Assembly: GCF_058153355.1 (NCBI RefSeq)
Contig: NZ_CM177019.1
Direction: 5' to 3' (one strand)
DNA length: 64,000 nucleotides
Below the pieces are notes generated by a model, which was not told the DNA's origin, did no database searches, and worked only from the letters and a program-made list of their open reading frames with translations. Position numbers and translations under genes: made by a program. Shown one piece after another: positions 7,644 through 54,105 of the stretch. The first letter of the stretch is position 1, and each line of letters begins with the position of its first letter.

Positions 7644-8838
7644 TACGCTGACTGCGGTAAAAGATAAGTTTGGTCCGGGTAAGAACGGATTTACTGACGG
7701 AAATCTTCGCACAGGACGTCTTGCCACCTGGCTGAACAGTGCCATGTGGGATGCCATTCAGGAGGAAATCTGTGGTGTCATTGAGAAGTCCGGGATAGAA
7801 CTGAATAAAGAAGAACACGACCAGCTATATAAAGCCATATTATTACTGGTGGGCGGTGCAATTAACGAAGAGGCATTGCTGATAAAAAATAATCTTTCGG
7901 ATGTGGAAGACAAGGATGAGGCTGTTGAAAACCTCGGATTAAAACCCACGGTGGACAAGGCAAAAAATGCCGTTCAGCGTGATGGTGATACCATGACCGG
8001 GGAACTGAAAATCCGTGGTGTTAATGCATTGAGGATTTTTAACGAGGCTTTTGGCCTTATTTTTCGTCGTTCTGAAGAGTGCCTGCATCTTATCCCTACC
8101 AGTGAAGGTCAGGGCGAGAATGGAGATATTGGTCCCCTGCGTCCGCTCACCATTAATTTGCGGACAGGAGAGATATCCATGTCGCATAAAGTGTCTGTTG
8201 GTGGCGGTTCTCAGGTGAATGGTGCGCTGGGTATCGGCGTTCAGAACGCGCTGGGGGGGAATTCAATTGTTCTTGGTGATAACGATACCGGGTTTAAACA
8301 AAATGGTGATGGTCTGCTGGATGTTTATGCGAATGGACAGCATGTATTTCGTTTTCAGAATGGCGTGGCTATTGCTTTTAAGAATATTCAGGCCGGAACT
8401 GCCAGAAAATTCACGTTATCCAGCGCCAACAACTCCACGAAAAATGCAGCGTTTTATTTGTGGGGTAATCCATCCAGGCCTGTTGTTGCAGAGCTTGGTG
8501 ATGATTCAGGCTGGCATTTTTTCAGCCAGAGAAACCCGGATAACAGCATAGTGTTCACTGTTAACGGACAGGTAATTCCGTTAAATTACGGAAACTTCGA
8601 TGCCCGCTATAAATATCGAACAGAGGGGGTACAGGATGTACGGTATGGCCATGAAATGTATTACGGCCCCGGCAGTAACACTGTTTCGTGGAGATTTTGC
8701 GCACCTTCGGGACACGGGCTGTCAGGGATATCGATATCGGATACCGGCCGTAACTCAGCGGATAACGTCAACGGTGTGTATTACCGACCGCTGCAAAAAC
8801 TGATTAATGGCACCTGGTATAACGTAGCGAGTATTTAA
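7630..8838 (+). CDS. Tail fibre protein (Mu S-like)
   Basis: ATG at 7630 preceded by gaggatgaag RBS; 402 aa; Gly/Asn-rich C-terminal region; followed by a Mu U-like assembly gene. Confidence 0.55.
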
Positions 8839-8983
8839 CAATGTTGCATTTAAAAAATATTACTGCGGGTAATCCGAAAACAGCAGAACAATATCAGATG
8901 ACAAAACGATATTCGGTCACCTGGCTTTTTTCAGAAGACGGAAAAAACTGGTATGAAGAGCTGAAGAATTTCGCCAGCGACAC

Positions 8984-8991
8984 AATTAAAA
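8984..8991. repeat. Target-site duplication AATTAAAA, left copy
   Basis: 8-bp direct repeat immediately flanking the IS66-family element. Confidence 0.8.
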
Positions 8992-9021
8992 GTAAGCGGC
9001 TCGCCAGAACCGTATTGATAT

Positions 9022-10593
9022 TTACTGAGAGCTCAGATCAACTTTCCAGGGCAACAGATCGCGTACCCGGTTTGCCGGCCAGTCCTGGATATGTTCAATG
9101 ACGTAACGCAGCCACTTTTCTGGCTCCACATTGTTCAGACGGCATGTGCCGATCAGCGAGTACAACACCGCAGCATGTTCACCACCGCTGTCAGAACCCG
9201 CGAAGAGCCAGTTTTTCCGGCCTACGGCCACTCCCCGTAAGGCGTTCTCTGCGATGTTGTTGTCGATTTCCACCCAGCCATTACTGCAGTACACGTTCAG
9301 TGCATCCCACTGTTTCAGCAGGTATGCGAACGCTTTTGCCGTGTCCGAGTGACGCGACAGTGTTTTCATCTGTTGCTGTATCCAGTCATACAGTGACTGC
9401 ATCAGTGGCGCGGCTCTGGCTTTTCTTGCCGCCAGACGCTGTTCTGCTGAACAGCCCCGGACCTCTGCCTCGATGGCATACAGTTCACCGATACGCTGCA
9501 GGGCTTCCGTGGTGATGTCGGTGGGCACTCTTGCATGCACATCGTGGATTTTTCTCCGGGCATGAGCCATACATGCGGCTTCCGTTATTCTGCCGGATTC
9601 GTACAACGCCCGGTAACCACCGTAAGCATCGGCCTGAAGCACTCCGCTGTAACCGGCCAGATGATTCTGTGGATGGATACCTTTCCGGTCCGGGCTGTAC
9701 GCGAACCAGACCGCCGGAGGCATTTCCGAACCGGCGTTACGGTCATCACGAACGTAGACCCACAGCCGGGCAGTCCTTGTTTTACCGCTGCCCGGCTCCT
9801 GGACCGGAACGGGGATATCATCGGCATGGACTTTACCGGGCATCAGCACATACTGGCGCAGGATGTCATACAGCGGTTCCAGCAGTTCAGCAACAGCACC
9901 TGTCCAGCGCCCCAGTGTGGCACGGCTCAGCTCCACGCCCTGACGACGGTATATTTCTGACTGGCGGTATAACGGCAGATGGTCTGCATATTTTCCAGCG
10001 ACAACATGGGCCAGAAGCCCCGCTCCGGCATAACTGCGTGCAATGGGTTTTGAAGGCACCGGAGCCTGCACGATATGGTCGCACCGGCAACAGGCCAGTT
10101 TCGGACGTTGTGTTTCGATAACCTTAAAGGCGCTGCTGATAAGCTCCAGTTGCTCTGACACATCACATCCCAGAGAACTGAGTTCGCCACCACAGGCCGG
10201 GCAGCATTCCTCTTCCGGACGGATGACCCGGGTTTCACGGGGAAGTGAGGCAGGTAACGGTTTACGGGCTGAAGACTGGCGCAGGGGAGATGGCAGTACC
10301 GGGTCATATTGCTCACCCAGCGTTTCCGCCATTTCTTCCTGAAGAGCGCTGATTCGCTCCTGTGCTTCCTGTATCTGCCGTTCGGTTTTTGCACGAAGTT
10401 TTTCTGAGCTTTTACCGAACTGCATGCGCTGCAGTTTTGCAACCAGCGCCTTCAGCCGGTTGATTTCGGAAGCATAAGCCGCCACCCGCTGTGAGAGCAG
10501 GCGGTTGTATTTCGCCATCTGGCGGATGGTGTCCTGTTGCGTCTGCAACAGTGCCCGCAGGCGGGCATTCTCATGAGCAAGTGAGGTGTCCAT
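9022..10593 (-). CDS. IS66-family transposase TnpC
   Basis: 523 aa; coiled-coil N-terminus, Cys-rich zinc-finger motif CPACGG...CCRCDH, DDE-type core. Confidence 0.85.
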
Positions 10594-23415: not shown

Positions 23416-24267
23416 TTAACCCACGTAAGCTGCCAGCATTTCCTGTGCTGCCAGTTTACCCAACGCATTCGCTGCGAAAGGACTGTCGCCGGTGAGCAGT
23501 TTACGGTCTTTATGAACTCGCCCGGTGATGTCGTCATTAATAATGTTCATGCCCATTTTCTTCAGCTCTTCGCCGAAGTACCAGGTGAGATGACCCGGCA
23601 TATAGCCAATATCTGGCGTTTGTTTGTCTGCGGCGTCTGGGAATGCGCAAATGGAATAACCGTTCAGTGGGTTATCGCTGTGGCGAAGCGCCAGAAATGC
23701 CGCTGGGCCGTGGCAAAGGGAGATAACAAAACGGTCATTTTTGATTGCCCACTGTAAAGCGGCAGCTACGTCCTGGCTTTCTGGTAAACCAATAAGTGCG
23801 CCATGACCACCAGGAACAAAGATTGCTGCATATTCGCTGTCAGCATTGAGGCTGGCGACAATATCCGCGAGTTTCTTCGGATTGCGGAACAACGATTTAT
23901 GCTGCTCAAAGAACGGCATTACCTTTTCATCTTTGTGTGGCATAGCCCAGTATTCAAACTTGGTCATCAGGCCGGAAATGGTCGCCACTTCGAATTCGAA
24001 ACCTGCCGCATGGAGATGATACAACGGTAGCAACGTTTCAATCGGATGGTTACCGGTTGAGAACAATTTGCCATTGTCGGTCGGCAAATAACGTTCGTCC
24101 GCGGCGATCACCAGAATTTTGTGTTTACCGCGATACGGTTTTGGATAGTCCACGCCATCAAGATCAGAGACAGGACTGGTATATTGGCTAAGCGAATATT
24201 CTGAAGGGAAAAATGCATTATCTTCAGCAGTATCGACCTGCGGATCTTTACTTTTTTGAACAGTCAT
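23416..24267 (-). CDS. hchA: Hsp31 glyoxalase / chaperone HchA
   Basis: 283 aa; DJ-1/PfpI family with the catalytic Cys in ISLCHGP. Confidence 0.9.
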   Translation of the reverse strand: MTVQKSKDPQVDTAEDNAFFPSEYSLSQYTSPVSDLDGVDYPKPYRGKHKILVIAADERYLPTDNGKLFSTGNHPIETLLPLYHLHAAGFEFEVATISGLMTKFEYWAMPHKDEKVMPFFEQHKSLFRNPKKLADIVASLNADSEYAAIFVPGGHGALIGLPESQDVAAALQWAIKNDRFVISLCHGPAAFLALRHSDNPLNGYSICAFPDAADKQTPDIGYMPGHLTWYFGEELKKMGMNIINDDITGRVHKDRKLLTGDSPFAANALGKLAAQEMLAAYVG

Positions 24268-24852: not shown

Positions 24853-26046
24853 TTAGAACTGGTAGACTAAGCCCACAGCAACGATATCATCGGTAGCGAT
24901 GCCGTTTGCTTCGTAGAAGTCATCATCGTTGTCCAGCAGGTTAATTTTGTAATCAACATAGGTGGACATATTTTTGTTGAAGTAGTAGGTCGCACCGACT
25001 TCAACGTATTTAACCAGATCTTTGTTAGTGTAACGCGGGTCGCCGTTGCCGTCATGAGCCCAGCCGCCTAAATCCTTACCTTTAGATTGCAAGTAAGCGA
25101 TGGACGGGCGCAGACCGAAGTCGAACTGATACTGAGCAACAACTTCAAAGTTTTGGGTTTTGTTAGCGATGGCTGATCTTGAATCACCATTAGCAAACTC
25201 GCCACCACCATATGGGGTCATATTGCGAGTTTCAGCGTACATAGCTGCTAAATACACATTATTAGCATCATATTTTGCACCAACAGTCCATGCTTCAGCG
25301 GTTTCACCACCAGCATTTCTGTTGCTATGGTTACGATCATTTAAACCAACTCCAACCTGATGATCTGAACGATCAGAGTTTGAATATGCAGCACCCAGAT
25401 TTAAACCGAAGTCGAAGTCGTAGGATGTAGACATACCGAAACCATCACCATTTTCTTTGGAAAGGCTACGGCCATCACCACTACCGGAACCTTCCTGCCC
25501 GAATGGTCCACCACTTTCATTATTACCCTGATATTGTAAAGCAAAGTTCAAGCCATCAACCTGACCAAAGAAGCCATTATTACGGTAGGTTGCAACACCG
25601 TTGGTACGACCGTTCATGTAGTTGTCGGCACCCGCGTAGGTATCGCCACCAAATTCTGGCAGCATATCGGTCCATGCTTCGATGTCATATACGACACCGT
25701 AGTTACGACCATAATCGAAAGTACCATTCTGACCAAAACCTAAACCTGCGAATGCCAGACGGGTAGCTGAGTTATCTCCATCGCCTTCTGTGCCATTTGC
25801 TTGAAGGTTGTATTCCCACTGACCATAGCCAGTGAACTGGTCAGCGATTTGTGTTTCGCCTTTGAAACCGATACGGGCATATGACATATCGCCATCAGCG
25901 CCCGAGTTGTCAGAGAAGTAGTGCAGACCTACTACTTTTCCGTATAAATCCAGTTTATTGCCATCTTTATTATAAATTTCAGCCGCATTTGCTGCGCCAG
26001 CAACTAATAACGCCGGGACCAGCATTGCCAGAACTTTTCTTTTCAT
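24853..26046 (-). CDS. yedS: OmpC-family outer-membrane porin, apparently intact
   Basis: Start at [21 protein letters not shown] gives 397 aa; C-terminal VGLVYQF; synteny between hchA and yedR. Confidence 0.75.
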
Positions 26047-26674
26047 TATGTATTCCCTTGTGATTATAATCTTCATGAATATAACAATAAGTGCCGTTAT
26101 CCAAAAAAAAGCACATTTGGATACTATTCTATGAAGTTCATTTTATTTTAAGGATTACATGTAACAAATGTATTTAAAAGATTGCAAAATGTTTCTAATC
26201 TATTTAATATAATTCATGCAAATGAATTATGAATATAACCATTCATGATGGTTATGGATGTATATCAATGAGTTATGAATTTTATGGAAAGATAGGGAGT
26301 GTCAATGATTTTTGCGCCAGACGGCCTATGTGATCGCGCGCACATTAATGAAGGCATAAAAAAAGCCGGCATCATGCCGGCCCAAAAAATATAAACAAGA
26401 CGATAAAAGGCTAATAACGGGGTTATCATGACACAGAAATCTAAAAAGGTATAATTGTATTCAGTGCTAATGTATTGTTTGGGTGAATTAATAAAACCAT
26501 TATCCAAGATAAAAATAAATCTTTATTGCTGTTTTTCCGGTAATTATTGCCGTTGCGCAAAAACTATCTATTTGCTCAAAAAATGATTGAGTCTTGACTG
26601 ACTCATCCAATGTGGAAAAATGTGACTTTTATCACATAATAGTACTAAGTCTGAATTTTCCAGGTTATCTCAAA

Positions 26675-43542: not shown

Positions 43543-46867
<3,325 letters not shown>

Positions 46868-47081: not shown

Positions 47082-47396
47082 ATGTCAGCGATACAGGGGA
47101 TTGAAGGGGTTATTAGCCAGTTACAGGCTACGGCGATGAGTGCGCGTGCGCAGGAATCACTGCCGCAACCGACCATTAGTTTTGCCGGGCAGCTGCACGC
47201 CGCGCTCGATCGCATAAGCGATACACAAACCGCCGCCCGCACGCAGGCAGAAAAATTCACCCTCGGCGAACCCGGCGTGGCGTTAAACGATGTGATGACC
47301 GATATGCAAAAAGCCTCAGTTTCTATGCAAATGGGGATTCAGGTGCGTAATAAGCTGGTGGCGGCGTATCAGGAAGTGATGAGCATGCAGGTGTAA
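47082..47396 (+). CDS. fliE: Flagellar hook-basal body protein FliE
   Basis: ATG at 47082 after a gggaga RBS; 104 aa [15 protein letters not shown]... Confidence 0.9.
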
Positions 47397-47729
47397 GTTG
47401 TGTAACCTGTTGTTGATTACATCCGATCTCACCGCGTGGGGCATGGATGGGGCAAACACACTCAATTTCTGGTTTAAAATGGAAACCTGATTCTGAAAGT
47501 TTTCTGCCATCCACGATCTGTAAACGCGATAACATGTTTTGTCTTCGCTTTGCTCATAGGAAGAGTGAACTCTTTCGTTAGCCTGGGGTTCCTTCTGATC
47601 ATTATTGTTCCTGCCTTTATCTCTTGCCACGCCAGAGCCCCCTGGATACACATACACCAGGATGAAAACGGTGAGTTGTGTTCAAACTGTAGTACAATTC
47701 TCTCCAGTATGAACAGGAAAGAATATGCT

Positions 47730-48062
47730 ATGAACCCTTATATTTATCTTGGTGGCGCAATACTTGCAGAGGTCATTGGTACAACCTTAATGAAGTTTTC
47801 AGAGGGGGTTACACGGTTATGGCCCTCTGTTGGCACAATTATTTGTTATTGTGCCTCATTCTGGTTATTAGCTCAGACGCTGGCTTATATACCTACAGGG
47901 ATTGCTTATGCTATCTGGTCAGGAGTCGGTATCGTTCTGATTAGTTTGCTTTCCTGGGGATTTTTTGGCCAACGGCTGGACCTGCCAGCCATCATAGGCA
48001 TGATGTTGATTTGTGCCGGTGTGTTAGTCATTAACTTGTTGTCACGAAGTGCACCGCATTAA
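47730..48062 (+). CDS. emrE: SMR-family multidrug efflux protein EmrE
   Basis: 110 aa MNPYIYLGGAILAEVIGTTLMKFSEG...; four transmembrane helices. Confidence 0.85.
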   Translation: MNPYIYLGGAILAEVIGTTLMKFSEGVTRLWPSVGTIICYCASFWLLAQTLAYIPTGIAYAIWSGVGIVLISLLSWGFFGQRLDLPAIIGMMLICAGVLVINLLSRSAPH

Positions 48063-48230
48063 AAAATAATCATCCTTGAGATAACAAGAATCTGATTTGT
48101 GCATATTATGGCTAATGTTCGGGGCAACTTTATAATTATGATTGCATTTGCGCGATCATTGCGCCTTTTTGCATAATGAGATCAAGGCACATCAAATAAA
48201 ATAACGATAGGTCACAACAAAGAGGTTTTT

Positions 48231-48782
48231 ATGAAAAAACTTATCGTTTCAAGTGTATTGGCATTCATAACATTTTCTGCGCAGGCCGCAGCATTTCAGG
48301 TCACTAGTAATGAAATAAAAACAGGAGAGCAACTTACAACGTCTCATGTATTTTCTGGATTTGGGTGTGAGGGGGGGAATACATCGCCCTCATTAACCTG
48401 GTCTGGTGCTCCTGAAGGCACCAAAAGCTTTGCCGTAACTGTGTATGATCCAGATGCGCCTACAGGCAGTGGATGGTGGCACTGGACTGTTGCTAATATT
48501 CCAGCAACGGTAACATATTTGCCCGCTGATGCAGGAAGACGTGATGGTACAAAACTTCCGACTGGTGCTGTCCAAGGCCGAAATGATTTTGGCTATGCGG
48601 GATTTGGTGGAGCATGTCCTCCCAAAGGAGATAAACCCCATCATTACCAGTTTAAAATATGGGCTCTAAAAACTGATAAGATTCCTGTGGATTCTAATTC
48701 CAGCGGAGCGTTAGTTGGTTATATGCTTAATGCCAATAAAATTGCAACCGCTGAGATAACACCCGTTTATGAGGTAAAGTAG
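48231..48782 (+). CDS. ybcL: Periplasmic PEBP-family protein (YbcL-like)
   Basis: 183 aa; signal peptide; PEBP/UPF0098 motifs. Confidence 0.75.
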   Translation: MKKLIVSSVLAFITFSAQAAAFQVTSNEIKTGEQLTTSHVFSGFGCEGGNTSPSLTWSGAPEGTKSFAVTVYDPDAPTGSGWWHWTVANIPATVTYLPADAGRRDGTKLPTGAVQGRNDFGYAGFGGACPPKGDKPHHYQFKIWALKTDKIPVDSNSSGALVGYMLNANKIATAEITPVYEVK

Positions 48783-48791
48783 GATAAGAGT

Positions 48792-49589
48792 ATGCTGGCA
48801 AAAGATAGGACTAACCTAAAGATTGAAGAAATACGGATGCATAAACATCATGAGATTCACAGGGTTAAGCCTCTTATGCCAGCTTTATGTCGTATCCGTC
48901 AGGGAAAAAAAGTTATCAATTGGGAGACGCATAGTCTAACTGTTGATAATAATCAGATAATATTATTTCCCTGTGGATATGAATTTTATATTGCGAATTA
49001 CCCAGAAGCAGGTCTTTATCTTGCAGAAATGCTTTATTATCCCATTGATCTAATTGAAAAGTTCCAAAATCTTTATGCGATAACCGATCAAATTCGTAAC
49101 ACGACAGGTTTCTGCTTACCTCAGAATCCCGAGTTAATATATTGTTGGGAGCAACTAAAAACATCTGTTTCCCGAGGCTTCTCAACGCAAATTCAGGAAC
49201 ACTTAGCAATGGGCGTTCTACTTTCATTAGGAGCACATCATGTTAATTGTTTACTTTTATCAGATAGTAAACAATCATTAATAAGTCGTTGTTATAACCT
49301 AATGCTATCCGAACCTGGAACAAAATGGACAGCAAACAGGGTAGCGAGATATCTCTACATTTCTGTTTCCACATTGCATCGCCGTCTGGCAAGCGAGGGA
49401 GTAAGTTTTCAAAGTATATTGGACGACGTGAGGTTAAATAATGCGTTGTCTGCTATACAAACGACAGTAAAACCCATCAGCGAGATTGCCAGGGAAAATG
49501 GTTACAAGTGTCCTTCTCGTTTTACTGAAAGGTTCCATAATCGTTTTAAGATAACACCAAGAGAGCTAAGAAAAGCGTCCAGAGAGTAA
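48792..49589 (+). CDS. AraC-family transcriptional regulator (YbcM-like)
   Basis: C-terminal AraC-type helix-turn-helix; true start may be an internal Met near 48837. Confidence 0.7.
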
Positions 49590-50090
49590 AAGTATTTTAT
49601 GAAGGAGCAACAGCATCGATTTTTATTTTGGAAAATCAATACGGCATACTCAACCTATTGGAGCCTGAACAATCCGGTGACTTCTGCGCTAATCGGGGAC
49701 GTTTATAAGCACATATAATTGATACTCTCTTCCTCCATCACAATTTCAGAAATGCACGTGTGATTTTTTGGCATCCGGCGTTTGGACTATGTGGAGTTCA
49801 AGAGTGGGAAAGTTACAAGAGGTTGAGGGGATAATTAAAGGGATGCTTATGACATTAGATATCCGGTTAGGTACGGATATCGTTGTTATTAAATCTAATT
49901 GATACGTTAATTGTTCACTGAGTATTATTAAAAATGGGGCGTTGAAACGCCCCAGAAAATAAAGGGTAATATATAACAGAAGGTTTATATAGTCAGAAGC
50001 AAGATAGCGCTTCTAAGGAAAGTGGCTTGAGGGGGCCACTTATATGTTGGGGAGGCAAAGCCTCCCACAACATATCTTTGAGTAATCAGA

Positions 50091-51173
50091 TTAGAACTGG
50101 TAAACCAATCCTACAGCAACGATATCATCGGTAGCAACGCCAGATGCTTTCGTGAAATCGCTCTTATCAATCAGGTTGATTTTGTAATCAACAAAAGTGG
50201 ACATATTTTTGTTGAAGTAATAGGTTGCACCTACATCAATATATTCAACCAGGTCCTGATCACCCCACGCACCCAAGTCTTTTCCTTTAGATTGCAGGTA
50301 AGCAACGGACGGACGCAGACCGAAGTCGAACTGATATTGTGCAACTACTTCGAAGTTTTGTGCTTTGTTGGCAATATGGTTATTACCAAAAACAGTCATG
50401 TTCTGGGTTTCAGAATAGGTGGTAGCCAGATAGATGTTGTTCGCATCATATTTCAGACCAGCTGCCCATACTTCAGCATTTTGACCAGATGCATTCAGGC
50501 TGTTGTTACCGTAGATAACCTGATCATTAGTGCGGTCAGATTTAGCATAGGTTGCACCTACACCGAATCCTTCATACTCATAAGTAGTGGAGAAACCGAA
50601 ACCATCACCGTTAGCTTCAGTTACGTCAGTGCGGTCATTTTTACCCTGATACTGAGCAGCAAAGTTCAGACCATCAACCAGACCAAAGAAGTCGTTGTTA
50701 CGATAAGTTGCAACACCTGTGGTGCGACCAGTCATGAACACATCTGTTTGGGTCCAGGTATCGCCACCGAATTCTGGCAGAACGTCGGTCCATGCACCGA
50801 TATCGTATGCTACACCGTAGTTACGGCCATAATCGATGGAGCCGTAGTCACCGAATTTCAGGCCAGCGAAGGCAAGACGGGTTTTATCTTTGGAAGAACC
50901 TTGAGATTCAGCACGGTTGCCTTTGAATTCATATTCCCACTGACCGAAACCAGTCAGTTGATCGTTGATTTGGGTTTCGCCTTTGAAGCCCAGACGAACA
51001 TAAGTTGTGTCGCCATCATCTGCATCGTTAGAAGAGAAGTAGTGCTTAGCATTAACTTTTCCGTACAGATCCAGCTTGTTACTGTCTTTATTGTAAATCT
51101 CTGCTGCCTGAGCAGACATCGCCATCAGTACTGATGCAGCTACAGCAGAAATTGCCACTGTTAATTTTTTCAT
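50091..51173 (-). CDS. OmpC/NmpC-family outer-membrane porin (prophage-type)
   Basis: 360 aa; signal peptide [24 protein letters not shown]-terminal VGLVYQF; several downstream hairpins. Confidence 0.8.
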
Positions 51174-51504
51174 CGTGAGCCCTTTTATTTGAACTATTAT
51201 TTAAAAATGATGTCACTGCACCACAAATATTCATCTAATCAATGAGATTATTTCAAGATGTAAGTTTTAGTTTCTCATTTAAATTGTGAAGTAGATCCCT
51301 ATTTTTATCTGAACTGTTTCTATTGCACACAATGCATGACTATTTTGTGAACGAATATAAATTTGGTAGTCAAATTATATTAAAGGTTGTTATTTATGAT
51401 TGACTCATAATTTATTTATTTAATTTAAATAGCCTAAAAATAACCATGGAGATTATTTGCATGATATTTGTTTAGATTTGTTAATGTAGTTGAGGTGATT
51501 TTAT

Positions 51505-52177
51505 TTAATACGCAATATAGCGCCGCTTGATATTAGTTCTATTTTTTTTTTGCGTAAGATAGATGAGACAAACTGAGACGCATAATGGTTTGCAAGGCTC
51601 TAATACTTTGATGTTGAGGATGTGATGGGGCATGTACGTGCATAGTACAATGATGTCCATGCCGGTGTGGATAATCTCCAGGCTTATCCGGTGCGCCGTA
51701 AAACCCCGTCCTTCAGGGCGGGGATATAAGGCGCGGTTTTCCACCTGACCAGGTGTTTGCTGTTGTTCAATGTATTGGCGGATGACGGATATTGGCGCAC
51801 CTCCGCAGCTACTGGCAAAATAGCCGGGACTCCACAAAACGCCTTTGTAGTAATACCTGACTGCAATATCTGGTCGATCTCGTCGCAGTAATCTACCCGA
51901 TACGCCTTTGTGGCTGTTTACCAGACTGGATATCGCCAGTTTGGGAGGATAGTTAATTAACAAATGGACGTGATTCTGGTTCGCCATCCATTTCAACCAG
52001 TTCAGCTTCAAAATCAGCACATACATTTGAAAAGTAAGTGCGTAGTTTTTCTGTCGCGTCATGGTCAAAAATCTGACGTCGGTATCTGGTGACAAAGACC
52101 CGGTGAACATGCATCAGAAAAACACAGTGCCTTCCACGCCGGATATCGGTTTCTTTTTTCACAGACCAAAGTATCAT
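51505..52177 (-). pseudogene. IS200-type Y1 transposase TnpA, frameshifted (3' limit approximate)
   Basis: N-terminal ORF 51953-52177 and a C-terminal part in another frame (NQNHVHLLINYPPKLAISSLVNSHKGVSGRLL...APISVIRQYIEQQQ); one extra base near 51970-51980 separates the frames. Confidence 0.6.
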
Positions 52178-53440
52178 TTGGCCTGTGAAACGACTACAAG
52201 CATTTAAATTCCAGTTAAGACCAGGTGGTCAACAGGAGCGTGAAATGAGGCGCTTCGCAGGCGCATGTCGTTTCGTTTTCAATCGTGCTCTGGCACGTCA
52301 GAATGAGAATCATGAGGCCGGTAATAAATACATCCCTTACGGGAAAATGGCTTCCTGGCTGGTTGAGTGGAAAAATGCCACTGAAACGCAATGGCTTAAA
52401 GATTCGCCCTCACAGCCATTGCAACAGTCACTGAAAGACCTTGAGCGGGCTTACAAAAACTTCTTCCAGAAGCGGGCTGCTTTTCCCCGATTCAAAAAGC
52501 GGGGACAGAATGATGCATTCCGCTACCCGCAGGGCGTTAAGCTCGATCAGGAAAACAGCCGTATTTTTCTGCCGAAACTGGGCTGGATGCGCTACCGGAA
52601 CAGCCGTCAGGTCACGGGTGTTGTGAAAAATGTCACGGTCAGCCAGTCCTGCGGTAAGTGGTACATCAGTATTCAGACAGAAAGTGAAGTATCCACTCCG
52701 GTTCATCCTTCAGCATCAATGGTCGGGCTGGATGCTGGCGTGGCTAAACTCGCCACGCTGTCAGATGGCACAGTCTTTGAGCCTGTAAACAGTTTTCAGA
52801 AAAACCAGAAGACGCTGGCGAGACTTCAGCGACAGTTAAGCCGCAAGGTCAAATTCAGCAACAACTGGCAGAAGCAGAAACGCAAAATACAGCGACTGCA
52901 TTCCCGTATCGCAAATATCCGCAGGGACTACCTTCACAAAGTCACAACGACCGTCAGCAAAAACCACGCAATGATAGTCATTGAGGATTTGAAGGTCAGC
53001 AACATGTCAAAGTCAGCAGCGGGTACGGTCAGCCAGCCGGGGCGCAATGTCCGGGCAAAATCAGGTTTAAACCGTTCGATACTGGATCAGGGCTGGTATG
53101 AAATGCGCCGCCAGCTTGAGCACAAGCAGCTCTGGAGTGGCGGTCAGGTGCTTGCTGTTCCGCCAGCGTACACAAGCCAGCGTTGCGCGTGCTGTGGTCA
53201 TACAGCGAAAGAAAACCGCCTGTCACAAAGTAAATTCAGATGCCAGGTATGTGGATATACAGCGAACGCCGATGTAAATGGCGCTCGTAACATTTTAGCG
53301 GCGGGGCACGCCGTTCTTGCCTGTGGAGAGATGGTGCAGTCAGGCCGCCCGTTGAAGCAGGAACCCACCGAAATGATTCAGGCGACAGCCTGAACGTAGC
53401 AGGGATCCACGTCCTTCAGGGCGTGGAGGATGTCAACAAA
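51660..53440 (+). mobile_element. IS200/IS605-family element (divergent tnpA and tnpB); boundaries approximate
   Basis: Matching subterminal hairpins ccccgtccttcagggcgggg (51704-51723) and ccacgtccttcagggcgtgg (53407-53426); Y1-type tnpA plus tnpB. Confidence 0.7.
52185..53393 (+). CDS. TnpB (IS605 OrfB-family RuvC-like nuclease)
   Basis: 402 aa; C-terminal zinc finger CACCGH...[18 protein letters not shown]; full length. Confidence 0.85.
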
Positions 53441-54105
53441 CAGGTTGAATTAACTTCGCGCCCTGGTTTTTGACATTACCCACCGCGCGCGACACAGGGT
53501 GCCAGGTGAACTGGTTTGCTGGAACACAGCCACTGGCAGAAATTTCAGAGGCTTCTTTACCGCTAATCTCTTGCCGCATCCATTCCCGCGCAGCTTCTGG
53601 CGACAGTACCAGCGGGCGGCGGTCATGAATATCTACCAGACCCTGGTCTGCTGCTGCAGTGACAATTAAAAATCCTTCGGCTTCGTCACCACGCTCAAAC
53701 GGTGTGCTACCTATCGCGGCTATAAAAACAGGTTGTCCATCAGCGCGATAGATAAAATAAGGCTGTTTTTTTGTCGCCTTCTTTTTTCCACTCAAACCAG
53801 CCATCGGCAAAACAGATTGCCCGACCATGTTGCCAGAGCGGTTTAAACATACGACTGGTTGCCGCAGTTTCTACGCGGGCGTTAATCAGCGGCGGTTTAT
53901 CCCACCATCCGGGAGCATATCCCCAGAAAACCGGATCCAGATGAAGGTGTTCATCACGTTCACTGAGCAGAAGAACTTTGGTTCCCGGCGCGACGTTGTA
54001 TCTGCCAATGGGTTCGGGATCGTAGGGAATATCGCGTTCAATATCTTCCGCGAGAAGCGCAAGGTAATCTTCACGCGTTTGGGATTGGGCAAAGCGTCCA
54101 CACAT
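53433..54105 (-). pseudogene. yedK: SOS-response-associated peptidase YedK, frameshifted
   Basis: N-terminal ORF (MCGRFAQSQTREDY...) and C-terminal ORF (...QPYFIYRADGQP...) in different frames; a 7-T run at 53766-53772 (7 A on the coding strand) where the recalled E. coli gene has 6. Confidence 0.7.

Follow-up and report, generated by a model that had tools for sequence, protein, structure and literature searches.

The window analysed here is a 64,000-nt stretch of the RefSeq assembly GCF_058153355.1 (contig NZ_CM177019.1), and all positions below refer to this whole window. It contains the interval between fliE and yedK, in which an earlier note, made from the sequence alone, had placed emrE, ybcL, ybcM, a porin gene and an element of the IS605 family; family scans found each of them where it had been placed. 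On the left, fliE (47082-47396, plus strand) was identified from its open reading frame (ORF) and its annotation at homologous loci, and is 97.4% identical to the K-12 gene. The core sequence 3' of fliE (47397-47533) is common to K-12, and homology to K-12 stops at 47533. It is followed by a left flank of 120 bp (47534-47653) of unassigned origin that occurs at this locus only. Downstream, on the plus strand, lie emrE (47730-48062), ybcL (48231-48782), encoding a periplasmic phosphatidylethanolamine-binding protein (PEBP) of the Raf-kinase-inhibitor-like kind, and ybcM (48792-49589), encoding an AraC-family regulator. A full-length gene for an NmpC-type general porin (50091-51173) is found on the minus strand, preceded by its A+T-rich upstream region and presumed promoter (51174-51511, minus strand, G+C 0.28-0.33). 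A single-copy right flank of 157 bp (51512-51668), likewise of unassigned origin and confined to this locus, completes what we refer to as the island. Core sequence common to K-12 then holds the insertion sequence (IS) IS609 (51688-53436, plus strand), whose end overlaps that of yedK (53433-54105, minus strand). The G+C content is 0.28-0.46 across 47.6-51.6 kb, compared with 0.51-0.57 in the flanks.

A DLP12-like origin of the island, proposed in the earlier note, was borne out by alignment. Window 47654-51511 is colinear with the K-12 DLP12 prophage in four ordered blocks at 85-93% DNA identity (DLP12 coordinates are positions in the K-12 DLP12 locus, L004). The first block (47654-48064, plus strand) matches L004 4240-4650 at 92.7% and consists of the last bases of ren with the adjoining intergenic sequence (47654-47729), followed by emrE. 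The second (48076-49796; 89.6%, L004 6739-8459) contains ybcL, ybcM and a 91-bp 5' stump of ylcH (49706-49796, plus strand); ylcH occupies L004 8369-8470 in DLP12. The third (49806-50132; 87.3%, L004 10242-10571) joins the 3'-terminal ∼99 bp of quuD, an antiterminator gene (49806-49904, plus strand; L004 9957-10340 in DLP12), to the 3' end of nmpC. The fourth (50149-51511; 85.4%) covers the remaining nmpC and its upstream region, of which 51174-51511 is homologous to the DLP12 nmpC-essD intergenic region; homology reaches L004 13163 and ends at 51511. The same order is found in live phages: the inducible lambdoid phages PhiR34_1, PhiR68_2 and PhiR70_1 carry ren-emrE-ybcK-ybcL-ybcM-nin-Q-porin-S-R-Rz and show ∼91% identity over 93% of the island.

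Compared with DLP12, the island is missing ylcJ-ybcK (∼2.1 kb), ybcN-ninE-ybcO-rusA-ylcG together with most of quuD (∼1.8 kb), and the IS5 of DLP12. Traces of the backbone are retained as the last bases of ren, the 5' stump of ylcH and the 3' stump of quuD. As pieces of the phage backbone, the stumps of ylcH and quuD show that the island is derived from phage and not the reverse. Like DLP12 and PhiR34_1, it presents the ren end, emrE, ybcL, ybcM, ylcH, the quuD end, an nmpC-type porin gene on the opposite strand and the porin upstream region in this order. Unlike them, it is located between fliE and yedK and is without integrase, ybcK, the nin region, most of Q, and lysis and structural genes. 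It also differs from DLP12 in its intact porin gene, whereas the K-12 nmpC is interrupted by IS5.

EmrE matches the SMR family (Pfam, E 1.6e-34), shares 97.3% of its residues with the K-12 protein and retains Glu14. YbcL matches the PEBP family (Pfam PBP, E 5.6e-42) and an NCBIfam equivalog model (400.8 bits; cut-off 277), and is 95.6% identical to K-12 YbcL; YbcM, with an AraC-type HTH_18 domain (Pfam, E 1.5e-16), is 91.7% identical to its K-12 counterpart. The ratio of nonsynonymous to synonymous substitution rates relative to the DLP12 copies is 0.04-0.13 for emrE, ybcL, ybcM and the porin gene; by this sequence measure, all four are under purifying selection. We infer that they are expressed and useful in this strain. 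At residue 99 of the YbcL precursor (codon 48525-48527), the window encodes Ala, K-12 Val and the B2 strain N1 Thr; this position corresponds to mature residue 78 given a signal peptide of 21 residues. Work by Lau and colleagues in 2012 reportedly found that Thr at mature residue 78, present in a variant from uropathogenic E. coli (UPEC), is needed for suppression of neutrophil migration. With Ala at residue 78, the window YbcL is without the Thr reported for the neutrophil-suppressing UPEC variant. That a single YbcL residue decides the suppression of neutrophil migration is also stated in a review (PMC4810123).

The porin of 360 aa is a classical Porin_1 protein (Pfam, E 1.3e-153), as are the phage-borne general porins NmpC, Lc and 'OmpD'. 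Of the alignments suggested in the earlier note, those to NmpC and OmpC agreed with its description of the porin as full length and NmpC-type: identity is 89.9% to the K-12 NmpC reconstructed by removal of IS5 and 60.5% to OmpC. Identity reaches 99.2% with the porin of PhiR34_1 and 100% with WP_000737290.1, a protein of B2 strains, but is just 58-62% with OmpC, OmpF (58.2%) and PhoE (62.2%). The closest solved structures are OmpK37, OmpC and PhoE. The RefSeq name 'porin OmpC' stems from passing a subfamily model and does not amount to an orthology call. Differences from K-12 NmpC are grouped in a few segments, presumably the surface loops as judged from the sequence. Downstream of the gene, a terminator-like hairpin (49935-49954, minus strand) has an 8-pair stem with six G-C pairs and is followed by a T-run. 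Published nmpC primers for the adherent-invasive E. coli (AIEC) strain NRG857c match the window exactly, with a predicted product of 863 bp as reported (PMC9409007). NmpC was detected by mass spectrometry (matrix-assisted laser desorption/ionization) in AIEC outer-membrane preparations (PMC9409007), which, given the exact primer match, is indirect evidence that the porin allele can be expressed and inserted in the outer membrane. In other genomes, a 1,222-bp deletion spanning 49911-51132 removes the porin; no obvious microhomology was seen at this deletion. Elsewhere in the window, near hchA (23416-24267), a second, non-classical porin of 407 aa is encoded at 24853-26076 on the minus strand. 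It scores above the NCBIfam OmpC-subfamily cut-off, giving two accessory porins in the window.

The element next to yedK, assigned in the earlier note to the IS200/IS605 family, is IS609, and its ends could be set from independent copies and from the empty site. IS609 copies at other E. coli loci align to 51683/4-53436/8 at 97-98% identity; they include copies annotated as IS609 in RefSeq, among them those of O157:H7 and O55:H7, and an insQ copy beside ydcO, also at 97-98%. Island-bearing genomes free of the IS (L005 and L006) read ...CAGGCTTAT/CAAACAGG... at the site, the slash marking the point of insertion. The empty site is thus ...GGCTTAT/CAAACAGG..., and independent IS609 copies share the TTAT, which in the window lies at 51684-51687 (plus strand) within core sequence common to K-12. 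By comparison with this empty site, IS609 occupies 51688-53436 (1,749 bp, its ends being uncertain by 1 bp); it entered on the 3' side of TTAT, and no target duplication accompanied the insertion. Two subterminal hairpins, at 51704-51724 (plus strand) at the left end and 53407-53427 at the right end, are 90% identical and in direct orientation, and there are no terminal inverted repeats. These hairpins, the lack of inverted terminal repeats and of target duplication, and the insertion 3' of a fixed tetranucleotide are all features of IS609. The earlier note had the element ending a few bases from the yedK stop; its position is correct, and the description can be refined, in that the last bases of the IS supply the stop codon. 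In the reading direction of yedK, GTT TGA TAA before the insertion has changed to GTT TGT TGA. IS609 therefore sits within the yedK stop codon, where one Cys is added and the new stop is provided by the element.

Two frameshifts in this region had gone unnoticed in the earlier note. The tnpA gene (51745-52177, minus strand), encoding the Y1 (HUH) transposase, is broken by one additional T at ∼51974 into two ORF pieces, both of which match Y1_Tnp. The extra T is absent from a 99.99%-identical assembly (L008) and from other strains, L002 included; either it arose by mutation very recently or it reflects an error in sequencing, and TnpB is intact both ways. As it reads, the window copy differs from the named IS609 in its frameshifted tnpA, so that it is not self-mobile, and in providing the yedK stop codon. 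YedK is the SRAP protein, a DNA-repair protein that protects abasic sites. Its frame is broken by one additional T in a T-run at ∼53766, and the two ORF pieces both match SRAP. The same frameshift is present in the near-identical assembly, GCA_043012465.1 (L008), and yedK is therefore probably a real pseudogene in this lineage.

The second gene of IS609, tnpB (52185-53393, plus strand), is intact and encodes a protein of 402 aa of the RNA-guided nuclease family. Pfam detected OrfB_IS605, Cas12f1-like TNB and helix-turn-helix domains, and the NCBIfam model guided_TnpB scored 383 bits against a cut-off of 100. The protein matches the ISDra2 TnpB structures (8BF8, 8EXA and 8H1J) at 191 bits, and contains the RuvC triad D183, E267 and D363 as well as the CxxC pairs C334/C337 and C353/C356. 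These residues agree with the ten critical residues of a published study at an offset of +2 (PMC12781874). A scan of 46.8-54.3 kb against Rfam returned a single match, to HgcC at 53330-53449, whose 21.9 bits (E 0.094) fall short of the gathering score of 50. HgcC RNAs share a UUCA tetraloop like that of the right end (PMC4615843), and the region of the tnpB 3' end and the element right end folds stably, with a z-score of -3.6. Together with the right-end hairpin and its UUCA loop, these features make 53330-53436 (plus strand) the probable end of an omega-RNA scaffold. The system resembles ISDra2 TnpB in its domain set, its RuvC Asp-Glu-Asp triad, its zinc-finger cysteines and the structured RNA-like region over the tnpB 3' end and the element right end. 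It differs in the target-adjacent motif, which would be TTAT for the window copy, against TTGAT for ISDra2. The TnpB-omega-RNA pair of the window copy may be active.

The sequence just past the right end of IS609 (53437-53456) is CAAACAGGTTGAATTAAC, and TTAT followed by CAAACAGGTTGAATTAAC is identical for 18 nt in every IS-free allele examined, K-12-type and B2 island-type alleles alike. Owing to this identity, the K-12 and B2 IS-free alleles would be perfect targets of a TnpB guide made from the window copy. One may speculate that IS609 at yedK acts as a locus-specific selfish 'guard', a notion that we regard as doubtful. As its guide, the omega-RNA would use the 16-20 nt beyond the right end (CAAACAGGTTGAATTAAC...), and any chromosome or incoming recombinant DNA in which the IS-free end of yedK is restored would be cut by TnpB; the guide transcript, if read through, would also be antisense to the 3' end of yedK. 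If true, such a guard would help the insertion and the linked island to persist in more than 1,000 genomes.

We determined how frequent these arrangements are among 5,426 complete E. coli genomes. The fliE-island junction is present in 2,620 of them (48%), and K-12-type interval DNA with yedL, yedN and intG in 2,697 (50%). The genes of the island are therefore not core genes, and the refuting condition set out in the earlier note does not apply. The island right flank was found in 1,554 genomes, once in each, and the junction of the 1,222-bp porin deletion in 1,073. The island-yedK junction without IS609, with the porin present, was found in 456, including ATCC 11775 and Nissle 1917. Island plus IS609 covering at least 80% of a 7.3-kb query was recorded in 1,027 genomes. 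The combination of porin and IS609 seen in the window occurs in only one strain with a complete genome, 2017.17.01CC, whose tnpA contains an IS1. The window and the porin-deleted strain R32_14_1F have copies of IS609 at yedK that share 99.6-100% identity, which points to one ancestral IS609 insertion at yedK, apparently before the porin was deleted. The window, as a rare intermediate with both IS609 and the porin, leads to the same order of events, IS insertion first and porin deletion later.

We observed at least six structurally different alleles between fliE and yedK, in agreement with the view of the earlier note that different lineages carry different debris here. It had also suggested that the site is a recombination hotspot: the polymorphism across lineages is confirmed, and a hotspot mechanism may be deduced from that polymorphism only. 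Its account of the K-12 interval was right about yedL, the yedN pseudogene and intG. The K-12-type content occupies the same slot between the same core breakpoints, with the fliE-side breakpoint at 47533 and K-12 homology resuming ∼20 bp past the yedK stop. It nevertheless consists of unrelated sequence and genes, yedN/espR3 being a pseudogene of a leucine-rich-repeat effector in K-12. The O157-type allele carries espR4 and espR3, and in the O157-type strain examined these type III effector genes are intact, unlike the K-12 pseudogene. A near-empty interval was seen as well. In the outbreak-lineage O104:H4 strain 2009EL-2050 (L017, locus 8180-9600), larger deletions have taken the porin region from the island together with most of tnpB and the 3' part of yedK, which shows further decay starting from the IS609-bearing allele. 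An exact 30-mer scan for the fliE-island junction in one genome per species gave a contig of a 'Lachnospiraceae' metagenome-assembled genome as the sole match; with an exact 30-mer a single mismatch suffices to miss a site, and the scan is uninformative on other Escherichia species. This 5.2-kb contig, SFGN01000137.1 (L015) from a 'Lachnospiraceae bacterium' bin, is 95.6-98.5% identical to the E. coli locus in aligned blocks and carries the island with the porin and without IS609; from its sequence it looks like a mis-binned Escherichia contig. A literature search on fliE together with yedK found no paper describing this interval.

Taken together, the fliE-yedK interval of the window is very probably a decayed DLP12-type prophage remnant that keeps only its cargo genes and was later joined by IS609, a reading that builds on directly observed homology, boundaries, deletion junctions, insertion site and population frequencies. 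Both the observation and the interpretation of the earlier note are supported. In this scenario, the ∼4.1 kb of 47534-51668 would come from a DLP12-type lambdoid prophage that has lost all phage functions. The cargo ('moron') genes kept would be emrE for a small multidrug efflux pump, ybcL for a periplasmic PEBP, ybcM for an AraC-type regulator and the NmpC-type porin gene, each presumably with its own expression signals, so that phage antitermination would not be needed. The remnant would be immobile and vertically inherited, as one of the two major alternative contents of the interval in E. coli. IS609 would have been added afterwards through the single-strand 'peel and paste' mechanism that the IS200/IS605 family uses, landing 3' of TTAT so as to separate the second base of the yedK stop codon from the third. 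In most lineages that descend from this insertion, the 1,222-bp deletion would then have removed the porin, and the window lineage would represent an earlier state in which both are kept.

Several observations weigh against this account. In Pfam searches at E-values up to 10, no integrase domain was found in the three minus-strand ORFs beside fliE, and no convincing flanking direct repeat or attachment-type repeat was seen at the island borders. ORFs and family scans revealed no replication, lysis or structural gene in 47397-51688, and the interval therefore holds a remnant rather than a prophage. Neither the left (47534-47653) nor the right flank (51512-51668) has a match in the phage collection, K-12 or DLP12, DLP12 itself is located at argU and not at fliE-yedK, and the omega-RNA assignment in IS609 is based on a sub-threshold Rfam match. 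With no integrase, attachment repeat, or phage structural or lysis gene, decay in place is indistinguishable from import of a truncated piece. The phage may thus never have resided here, and a rearranged prophage piece, for example from argU, could have been copied in by illegitimate or flank-homology recombination. Besides the missing phage genes and attachment site, the location of DLP12-type phages at argU in K-12 and the non-phage-like flanks of 120 and 157 bp fit this alternative, which we nonetheless consider unlikely. An integrase fragment (intG) is annotated at the equivalent of 47397-47533 in K-12 and some RefSeq records, suggesting that the site has hosted integrative elements; in the window itself, an integrase remnant beside fliE was discarded as evidence, since it has no Pfam match and its support comes only from annotation in other records. 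Stepwise deletion is directly observed at the locus, in the 1,222-bp porin deletion and in the larger O104:H4 deletions, which makes decay in place the simpler explanation; the prophage presumably decayed at this site.

Two further explanations fare much worse. The identical position of the left junction in 2,620 complete genomes and the purifying selection on the genes would both be expected if the four genes were core Escherichia genes of conserved position that DLP12-type phages had picked up secondarily. This is very improbable, and was rejected on the allele frequencies and the phage-gene stumps: the island is found in only 48% of the genomes, with unrelated K-12-type DNA in 50% and some intervals almost empty, and the ylcH and quuD stumps inside it are not expected of a chromosomal source. 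Its G+C content, set against that of the flanks, argues in the same direction. An origin of the arrangement in misassembly or a chimera can practically be dismissed. Found in the window alone, the tnpA frameshift could be a sequencing error, but over the full length of the region there are matches at 99.99% in two independent assemblies, on which ground this explanation was rejected, and the junctions are common to thousands of complete genomes.

Beyond the interval, the ORF list places fliF at 45209-46867 on the minus strand, and yedF and yedE are next after yedK.

All components of the locus are of known kinds and annotated by RefSeq in thousands of genomes, and no new mechanism is needed. 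A decayed prophage that keeps cargo genes, and IS609, a common insertion sequence, are textbook cases that offer little for discovery; slightly unusual are the IS609-plus-porin combination, the yedK stop supplied by the IS, the yedK frameshift and the Ala at residue 78 of YbcL. The fliE-yedK interval represents a clean two-state polymorphism, about half island and about half K-12 type, in which successive steps of decay can be read and the window, with IS609 and the porin, is a rare intermediate. Genes of the locus have been studied in pathogens, YbcL in urinary-tract isolates and NmpC in AIEC, and typing of the interval allele could therefore serve strain comparisons.

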